Shown here in pieces: positions 32,909-33,714 of a stretch of 64,000 bases of DNA. Source of the stretch: a virus; the IMG/VR virus record IMGVR_UViG_3300002143_000172, positions 1 through 64,000 of that record. One strand, 5' to 3'. The position numbers and the translations under genes were made by a program. Below the pieces are notes generated by a model. It had not been told where the DNA came from, made no database searches, and saw nothing but the letters and a program-made list of their open reading frames with translations. Position 1 is the stretch's first letter. The number at the start of each line of letters is the position of its first letter.

Positions 32909-32985
32909 TGGTTGCAGTGGCAGGATTCGAACCTGCGATTCCCGGCTTATGAGACCGGACGGATAGACCACTTCCATACACTGCG
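32909..32985 (-). tRNA. tRNA-fMet(CAU)
   Basis: CAU anticodon, C1:A72 mismatch. Confidence 0.85.
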
Positions 32986-32990
32986 ATAAT

Positions 32991-33020
32991 TGGTGGAGGA
33001 GACAGGGATCGAACCGATAT
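32991..33020 (-). pseudogene. 3' remnant of a tRNA-Ala
   Basis: CGGUUCGAUCCCUGUCUCCUCCACCA without 5' half. Confidence 0.7.
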
Positions 33021-33023
33021 CTC

Positions 33024-33536
33024 CTAAATGGTGGAGGTTAAGGGGATCGAACCCTTAACTCTGCCTTGCAAAGGCAGCGTGTTCCCATTAGCACTAAACC
33101 CCCATTTGTATTCAACTGCTTGCTCTATTAAAGGAGCAACTTCGTCTTTCCATTTGCTATGTACCATTTCGTGATGATTTGGACATAATGGTATTAAGTT
33201 CTGCGGATCGTTATTATCGTGATTCTCATCTATATGATGTATTGCTACAATCTTATCAAATCCGCAAATAACACATTCGTGTTTCCAATGCTGTAAAGCA
33301 ATAGTCTTATAATGCGTAGCATTATCATTCCACCACTCTTGTCTATTGTTAGCACAACTACGACTACAGAACTTTGCTCGTTCATATGTCTTAGTTTTTA
33401 TGCGTCCTTCAAATATAAACTCTGTACCACAGCGTTCACATTCTTTAGTATGTTTTGCAACAGGACCAAATCGTTTATCGTTCTTTTCCTGTTGTAGGAG
33501 TTTGTATTGTTCAGTGTTATATTTTCCGTTGTTCAT
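33024..33536 (-). CDS. HNH homing endonuclease; C-terminus runs through tRNA-Ala
   Basis: KFCSRSCAN, CVICG, HHID, NLIPLCPNHH. Confidence 0.9.
   Translation of the reverse strand: MNNGKYNTEQYKLLQQEKNDKRFGPVAKHTKECERCGTEFIFEGRIKTKTYERAKFCSRSCANNRQEWWNDNATHYKTIALQHWKHECVICGFDKIVAIHHIDENHDNNDPQNLIPLCPNHHEMVHSKWKDEVAPLIEQAVEYKWGFSANGNTLPLQGRVKGSIPLTSTI
33029..33103 (-). tRNA. tRNA-Ala(UGC)
   Basis: cloverleaf, G3:U70, CCA. Confidence 0.9.
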
Positions 33537-33567
33537 ACTTTATTTATCATAAAGTGCGAAATACGAA

Positions 33568-33596
33568 CGCTGTTCTATCAACTGAGCTACACCCCC
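33568..33596 (-). pseudogene. 5' remnant of a tRNA-Ala
   Basis: GGGGGUGUAGCUCAGUUGAUAGAACAGCG then HNH promoter. Confidence 0.7.
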
Positions 33597-33637: not shown

Positions 33638-33714
33638 TGGTCGGAGTACAAGGATTCGAACCTTGGACCTCCTGGTCCCAAACCAGGCGCACTACCAGGC
33701 TGTGCTACACTCCG
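33638..33714 (-). tRNA. tRNA-Pro(UGG)
   Basis: canonical cloverleaf. Confidence 0.95.

Follow-up and report, generated by a model that had tools for sequence, protein, structure and literature searches.

How does an HNH endonuclease gene come to lie between two separated pieces of a tRNA-Ala gene, with a second and intact tRNA-Ala forming the end of its own reading frame? This arrangement was found in the IMG/VR record IMGVR_UViG_3300002143_000172, of which positions 1 to 64,000 were analyzed (hereafter, the window). The window corresponds to the first 64 kb of a 159-kb viral contig (G000 when taken whole) with an estimated completeness of 44%. It contains 31 tRNA genes, every one of them on the minus strand and all between 28.7 and 43.9 kb. 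A megablast comparison with named phages retrieved matches of tRNA length only, and the phage collection has no close cultured relative; the group is large in metagenomes, where the gene of a neighbouring P-loop kinase has 456 matches in IMG/VR. The contigs and loci used for comparison, among them IMG/VR and ENA ones, are designated by L numbers (for instance, L027).

Along the minus strand, the tRNA-Pro gene is followed by a 41-nt spacer and then by a tRNA-Ala-like sequence that starts at 33596 and subsequently degenerates (Table 1). Between this 5' remnant and the corresponding 3' remnant there is a cassette of about 530 bp, made up of a hairpin at a start codon, an HNH ORF of 170 codons and an intact tRNA-Ala(UGC). 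The 3' remnant starts 3 bases past the CCA of this replacement tRNA and ends at 32991, and the tRNA-Met gene begins 5 bases further on.

Table 1 Features of the interrupted tRNA-Ala locus, in window coordinates. All features are on the minus strand
Feature	Position	Strand	Basis or remark
tRNA-Pro(UGG), upstream flank	33638..33714	-	in a Gly-Val-Pro block conserved among relatives
5' remnant of the resident canonical tRNA-Ala(UGC)	33554..33596	-	comparison with the intact allele
Hairpin of the cassette, predicted regulatory	33525..33567	-	fold and consensus fold of 8 cassettes
HNH endonuclease ORF, 170 aa	33024..33536	-	sole long ORF here; conserved core at residues 1-144
Replacement tRNA-Ala(UGC)	33029..33103	-	ARAGORN; Rfam tRNA, 56.7 bits
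3' remnant of the resident tRNA-Ala	32991..33025	-	comparison with the intact allele
tRNA-Met(CAU), downstream flank	32909..32985	-	Ala-Met adjacency also beside intact alleles in relatives

The nature of the two flanking pieces was studied by comparison with an intact tRNA-Ala(UGC) allele of 76 nt that matches both of them and is present in 42 IMG/VR contigs, as retrieved with a pattern made from the outer ends only. The first 18 nt of the 5' remnant (33596-33579) and the last 25 nt of the 3' remnant (33015-32991) are identical to this allele. Since these 43 matching bases are in the correct order and orientation, the remnants are the ends of a real allele and no chance look-alikes. Inward of 33579, the 5' remnant is either of the donor type or decayed, including a mutated relic of the anticodon loop, and the inner 10 nt of the 3' remnant are common to other cassettes and overlap the stop codon of the HNH ORF. 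Relative to the intact allele, the remnants of the window have changes in the D loop, the D stem and the T stem, and they retain no usable anticodon arm. A first-pass annotation, made from the sequence of the window alone, had already recognized two tRNA-Ala halves around the HNH gene, and the match of their ends to the intact allele upholds this; the limits it gave to them were nevertheless too narrow, as the remnants reach to about 33554 and about 33025. An exact search of IMG/VR with the 29-nt 5' half as first delimited had no match, because the inner part of this half is decayed.

The same annotation had expected that relatives devoid of the HNH would carry one intact tRNA-Ala in place of the fragments, and this is what they have: a single canonical tRNA-Ala whose ends match the split fragments. 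In no HNH-less relative were both fragments found. The 80 relatives retrieved through the neighbouring kinase gene have no HNH within 3 kb. There is likewise no HNH near the intact alleles of the 42 contigs, nor in the vicinity of the intact allele of L156 and L157, which matches the remnants of L015. The search through the kinase gene recovered no exact empty-site twin of the window. L027, the closest relative by this gene (98% identity), ends 39 nt upstream of its tRNA-Met and has a different tRNA order, so that it neither shows nor excludes the cassette.

The protein encoded between the remnants is predicted, from its sequence and its modelled fold, to be a member of the HNH (His-Me finger) endonuclease superfamily. 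It matches the phrog_2255 family 'HNH endonuclease' (E = 4e-17) and falls just under the cutoff of the Pfam families HNH_2 and HNH (19.1 and 18.0 bits, respectively). The residues that are invariant in 41 homologs are all present here (H100, H101, N109, N113, H122, H126 and C88/C91/C118); the invariant positions comprise the catalytic His pair, two Asn, the terminal His and two Cys4-type zinc sites. The AF2 model has a pLDDT of 92.8 and its best fold matches in Foldseek are the HNH domains of EcoKMcrA, CBASS Cap5 and IscB (probability ~1.0, E ~0.01), and a sequence search of the PDB returned only a weak match to the HNH of IscB. The N-terminal half, which consists of a zinc-ribbon-like hairpin and helices, has no named match in these searches and might be the DNA-recognition part. 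When clustered at 90% identity, the family comprises at least 222 groups of proteins, of which almost all are labelled as hypothetical. Its homologs share a conserved MNNGKY start and have their own start codon, which in the window is the ATG at 33536. The ORF ends with a TAG at 33026-33024, 3-5 nt beyond the CCA end of the tRNA, and residues 145-170, the last 26 codons, are read from the tRNA. The lengths of the family members cluster at about 147, 153-158 and 170-176 aa, in agreement with the positions of the stop codons within the tRNA.

Two observations concern the history of the nuclease gene itself. L012, L015 and L024 have a different and longer N-terminal region (191-193 aa in total, starting with MWKCKHCK), and their C-terminal HNH and tRNA are close to those of the window; this suggests that recombination within the gene may swap the presumed DNA-binding module. 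Moreover, BLAST aligns residues 131-138 of the window HNH (DEVAPLIE) with a stretch encoded by the tRNA-Ala of Vibrio phage nt-1 (GDVAQLGE), and window positions 33146-33120 are identical to positions 3391-3417 of L001 at about 17 of 27 nt, which is a weak signal. A tRNA 5' end that was translated at an earlier time might be the origin of the C-terminal helix in this HNH lineage.

The presence of an intact but divergent tRNA-Ala(UGC) as the end of the HNH gene, which had also been noticed at first sight, was recovered with both ARAGORN and Rfam over codons 145-170. This replacement tRNA has the G3:U70 pair and A73, together with a non-canonical D stem of 3 bp and a variable loop of 4 nt. Its shape is typical of the tRNAs linked to this nuclease: 15 of the 16 distinct ones lack the near-universal TAGCTCA start of the D arm, with diverse 3-bp D stems and 4-nt variable loops, and all of them retain G3:U70, A73 and the UGC anticodon loop.

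The recurrence of the arrangement was evaluated in 24 IMG/VR loci (15 of them distinct) and 3 ENA loci with HNH homologs. In each locus with enough sequence, a tRNA-Ala(UGC) is found about 430-450 nt after the ATG, and the neighbouring tRNAs vary; in 17 distinct homologous loci, that of nt-1 among them, a tRNA-Ala(UGC) starts where the conserved HNH core ends. At least 11 loci (the window, L004, L008, L009, L011, L012, L013, L014, L015, L024 and L159) have remnants on both sides of the cassette, and L003 keeps short relics of its resident tRNA-Ala. The remnants are variably truncated among relatives, down to 10-11 nt in L003 and L014. These comparisons show the cassette to be a conserved unit set within different resident tRNA-Ala alleles of different phages. 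The acceptor strands of the remnants are complementary, with G3:U70, and differ between loci at 5:68, 6:67 and 7:66 (GGGGGTG/CTCCTCC in the window, GGGGATA/TATCTCC in L011, GGGCTCT/AGGGTCC in L015 and GGGGCCA/TGGCTCC in L159). Since the pieces are 550 nt apart, are unable to form a tRNA and need no covariation, this covariation must predate each split, which in turn implies several independent insertions.

Two loci are particularly informative about how the cassette enters its target. L159 is an ENA contig of 3,967 nt in which the HNH is 95% identical to that of the window, the cassette tRNA is identical and the inner junctions do not differ. Its outer remnants are those of another tRNA-Ala allele, and its neighbours are an Amidoligase_2 gene and an IscU-like ORF, not tRNAs; apparently, a lone tRNA-Ala gene outside any tRNA cluster was invaded. 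In the case of L015, the resident allele is found intact in L156 and L157, followed by the same downstream spacer and the same tRNA-Gly(GCC). Positions 1-26 and 49-76 are identical between them, and the inner parts of the L015 remnants are those of a different allele. Remnants are therefore hybrid, with outer parts that match the local alleles and inner parts that are shared by loci with the same cassette, as seen when the window is compared with L008, L159 and L015. This composition implies an entry via homologous recombination in which the split tRNA ends act as short homology arms; the combination of local outer and cassette-linked inner parts is the trace that double-strand-break repair with short conversion tracts leaves. 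In L012 and L015, the 5' remnant extends to nt 36 and the 3' remnant starts at nt 41, so that the original insertion point is in the anticodon loop. The lineages of the window type have since lost or scrambled more of the 5' remnant.

The idea of a homing cassette inserted in a resident tRNA-Ala, first put forward for the window alone, is thus strengthened by its recurrence within different alleles with hybrid remnants. It is quite probable, judging from these alignments, that the cassette homed into the anticodon-arm region of a resident canonical tRNA-Ala(UGC). Several traits of a free-standing homing gene (intronless homing, T4 Seg/Mob type) are present, namely the lack of an intron, an own start codon, a presence/absence polymorphism and the co-conversion of flanks. 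In a mixed infection, the nuclease would nick or cut canonical tRNA-Ala genes near the anticodon loop and the repair of the break would copy the cassette from the donor. The tRNA of the cassette, which is diverged in the D arm, the anticodon stem and the variable loop, would escape cutting and would restore the tRNA-Ala function that the insertion destroys.

If this is so, does the canonical gene coexist with the nuclease? The 159-kb contig has just two tRNA-Ala genes, each of variant shape and each directly behind an HNH gene. Using a pattern made of the canonical D arm and the Ala anticodon, an intact canonical tRNA-Ala was found in none of 11 HNH-bearing contigs, which include a complete genome of 236 kb, versus 6 of 10 large HNH-less relatives (Fisher's exact p = 0.004, for contigs that are related, incomplete and not independent). 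For that reason, the exclusion of canonical tRNA-Ala from HNH-bearing contigs is taken as suggestive. In Vibrio phage nt-1, the D arm of the HNH-linked tRNA-Ala is canonical, so a variant D arm is not needed for coexistence with every member of the family, and tRNA-Ala genes of the variant type also occur without any HNH (L092 and L151). On the whole, the sequences lean toward the immunity of the replacement tRNA to the HNH, which we consider somewhat probable.

A different origin of the layout has to be weighed here. The HNH could be a passenger, carried together with its tRNA-Ala by recombination of tRNA clusters at conserved tRNA sequence and cutting elsewhere or non-specifically, and the split of the resident gene would then be a by-product. 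The invariable association with tRNA-Ala(UGC) in 17 of 17 loci is hard to reconcile with such passive transport, as are the constant insertion point, always in the same arm of the same tRNA, the copy of L159, which is outside tRNA clusters and yet inside a tRNA-Ala, and the lack of the canonical allele in HNH-bearing contigs. This explanation therefore seems quite unlikely, even if tRNA clusters are heavily rearranged among close relatives such as the window and L027 and if members of a second HNH family, unrelated to this one, also lie next to various tRNAs.

It is still much less probable that the halves are those of a working split or intron-containing tRNA gene, to be joined once the cassette has been removed from the transcript. 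The insertion point of L012 and L015 is precisely in the anticodon loop, where bacterial tRNAs are known to host group I introns with homing endonucleases (PMC3984707). Yet, no intron model matched the insert at E values up to 10, the anticodon arm of the window is missing or mutated and its D arm is mismatched with regard to the intact allele, and the variable truncation of the remnants resembles the decay of pseudogenes. Furthermore, the ORF occupies almost the whole insert and so leaves no space for a ribozyme. A group I intron in the tRNA was rejected as a candidate, as there is no Intron_gpI match and the exons are incomplete. Finally, an assembly chimera or a one-off illegitimate rearrangement, which the metagenomic assembly and the partial completeness of the contig could bring to mind, has a negligible probability and is refuted by the recurrence of the same layout in many independent IMG/VR and ENA assemblies and by the HNH-tRNA overlap of the isolated and fully sequenced phage nt-1.

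Homing of the cassette into the resident tRNA-Ala can be extended into a broader proposal. Since D-arm and T-arm sequences are nearly universal, the split tRNA ends would be portable as homology arms and would be what makes the cassette mobile. With 20-40 nt of these dead ends on each side, every tRNA-Ala(UGC) gene would be open to homing by the cassette, in unrelated phages as well and also where no tRNA cluster is present; the resulting odd tRNAs would perhaps be favoured by escaping host defences that target tRNAs, and homing nucleases would be a main engine behind the non-canonical tRNAs of large phages. We regard this extended scenario as possible but rather doubtful.

The beginning and the end of the nuclease gene offer some indications about its expression. 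The first-pass annotation had reported a hairpin adjoining the ATG; it is real, spans 33555-33537 and lies at the centre of a longer helix in which the start codon is paired (z = -1.9). In the core stem, 33555-33549 pair with 33543-33537 over 7 bp, ending 1 base before the ATG. Outside this core, further helices bring the AUG and codons 2-4 into pairing with two TTCG repeats located upstream. No Shine-Dalgarno sequence was found at the HNH start. A consensus leader fold is shared by 8 cassettes, where 2 of 12 pairs are compensatory; this little covariation is explained by the high conservation of the region. The hairpin contains a GATAAATA box, at 33548-33541, that is conserved in cassettes, and an ATAAATA box is found 4-6 nt before the ATG in cassettes of the window type, or farther upstream and then followed by GGAG in two other types. 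Within the window, neither TATAAATA (9 observed versus 8.7 expected) nor GATAAATA (2 observed versus 5.5 expected) is enriched. In the whole contig, 9 of the 12 occurrences of TATAAATA and 3 of the 4 of GATAAATA are within 40 nt upstream of an ORF start, a placement that is only suggestive of a putative T4-type late promoter. If the box were indeed a T4-like late promoter, the transcripts of the window type would be leaderless. Considered across G000, the NATAAATA boxes are not over-represented, and most of them are located 4-30 nt (several of them 4-10 nt) upstream of ORF starts, so this phage group may use them as a gene-start signal, with leaders that are very short or lacking.

Regarding the other end of the gene, the stop codon is placed at or after the tRNA +1 position in 17 of 17 distinct loci, with offsets of -2 to +1, +8, +12/13, +40 to +46 and +78 to +81 and in different frames. 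Given these varied offsets and frames, the tail encoded by the tRNA has no conserved peptide sequence; the constant trait is that no stop codon precedes the tRNA. Cleavage by RNase P at tRNA +1 would thus leave the HNH mRNA non-stop. The output of the nuclease would then be kept low in two ways: by an AUG enclosed in a hairpin and deprived of a ribosome-binding site, and by a stop codon in or beyond the tRNA that is cut off upon tRNA maturation. Such a downregulation, already proposed in the first-pass annotation, is plausible and has precedents in other phages; it is an evenly balanced question whether tRNA processing acts as a brake on the nuclease.

Several known systems share some of these characteristics. 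T4 SegB is encoded by a free-standing gene in the T4 tRNA cluster, cuts a tRNA gene of a nuclease-less relative and drives the preferential inheritance of itself and the adjacent tRNA genes; its reading frame terminates at the next tRNA (tRNA-Arg) and the processing of the transcript has been proposed to separate the stop and to damp expression (PMC2330249). The cassette resembles it in being a free-standing nuclease in a tRNA cluster, in having a tRNA gene as predicted target and in the stop at the next tRNA. Nevertheless, SegB is a GIY-YIG protein whose gene is placed between intact tRNA genes, without split remnants or a dedicated replacement copy. As an HNH and not a GIY-YIG protein, the nuclease of the cassette is outside the SegB family. 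The tRNA region of T5 contains HNH-type endonuclease ORFs in the tRNA cluster, for which the same damping by processing was proposed (2004 study, as cited in PMC2330249); neither the splitting of a target tRNA nor a replacement tRNA linked to the nuclease is mentioned where that study is cited.

The mORFs of fungal mitochondria are the other relevant precedent. According to PMC3630166, they are found in gene hybrids of Allomyces macrogynus (atp6) and Glomus (atp6, atp9, cox2 and nad3). As described there, the endonuclease gene likewise travels with a divergent foreign copy of the segment that it displaces, and the native segment likewise persists as a remnant that matches a nuclease-less relative. 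The mORFs differ in that they affect protein-coding targets, of which they replace the C-terminal part only and in frame, reside in organelles and involve other nuclease families. The layout of the cassette would be, by analogy, that of the mORFs applied to a whole RNA gene in phages. MobE from the Aeromonas phage Aeh1 is a free-standing HNH homing endonuclease that splits the essential gene nrdA. In that case, the nrdA pieces are functional and reassemble as a protein, whereas the tRNA pieces of the present locus are dead and a complete new gene copy is brought in. The closest named relative of the window nuclease is YP_008125512 from Vibrio phage nt-1 (Mylasvirus), with 58% identity over 138 aa. 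Its gene is similarly located within a tRNA cluster and the ORF extends 42 nt into a tRNA-Ala(UGC), but there are no remnants, and the record annotates it as an HNH endonuclease only and leaves the tRNA overlap unmentioned.

HNH genes in viral tRNA clusters have been suggested in a survey to spread tRNA genes, without a description of the present architecture (PMC6409571). In addition, the phi-pp2 paper reported a 465-nt insert and a TGC pseudo-tRNA in a tRNA cluster of the KVP40 type and left the two unconnected (PMC3468402). Our literature search found no description of a cassette made of a nuclease and a replacement tRNA within a tRNA gene.

Homing endonucleases usually spare their host because they are hidden in self-splicing introns or inteins or placed between genes. 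The element proposed here would instead break its target and compensate for the damage with a working copy that is presumably resistant to cutting. Engineered cut-and-replace gene drives follow the same logic, which here occurs naturally and on an RNA gene. From the loci compared, the cassette appears to be widespread: it is found in many unrelated aquatic phages, where its behaviour resembles that of a natural cut-and-replace drive directed at a tRNA gene. The hybrid remnants can be read as molecular fossils, which makes the invasions countable. Such elements may be a source of the duplicated, fragmentary and odd-shaped tRNAs of big phage genomes, of ORFs that apparently contain a tRNA and of the fast turnover of phage tRNA clusters. 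The central claim is readily testable, as the target site has 76 bp and the enzyme about 144 aa.

Some related loci may represent other outcomes of tRNA-cluster evolution. In L074 and L076, a cassette-type tRNA-Ala followed by a 10-nt relic of the resident 3' end is found about 290-390 nt after the start of the tRNA-Pro, with no HNH; the place of the latter is taken by a small unrelated Cys-rich ORF of 54 codons. Such loci seem to represent a later stage, after loss of the nuclease. L027, introduced above, has two tandem tRNA-Met genes (40-190) versus one in the window (32985-32909), and the 5-nt spacer ATTAT is identical in both after different upstream genes. The difference exemplifies a reshuffling of the cluster mediated by tRNA ends.

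A second analogous unit is present in the window at 43721-43059, also on the minus strand. It contains a different HNH-like ORF (43721-43179, 180 aa) that is preceded by a TATAAATA box embedded in a hairpin, has a GGAG ribosome-binding site and shares only the FCSRxCAN zinc-finger motif with the first HNH. The other tRNA-Ala(UGC) of the contig (43173-43099), which has a reduced D arm, starts 6 bases after this ORF. The stretch of about 40 nt located behind it has ...TCCACCA as its end and contains a second copy of 9 nt from the Ala anticodon region, and is possibly a decayed remnant. The relatives of the second HNH (L149-L155) abut a tRNA at their 3' end, which may be Ala, Asn or Met. Among them, L153 has a tRNA 5' half directly upstream of the ORF of this second family, in L152 a hairpin that contains a TATAAATA box, together with another ORF, truncates the tRNA-Thr, and L155 carries a tRNA-Asn-like gene in which a segment of the anticodon loop is duplicated.
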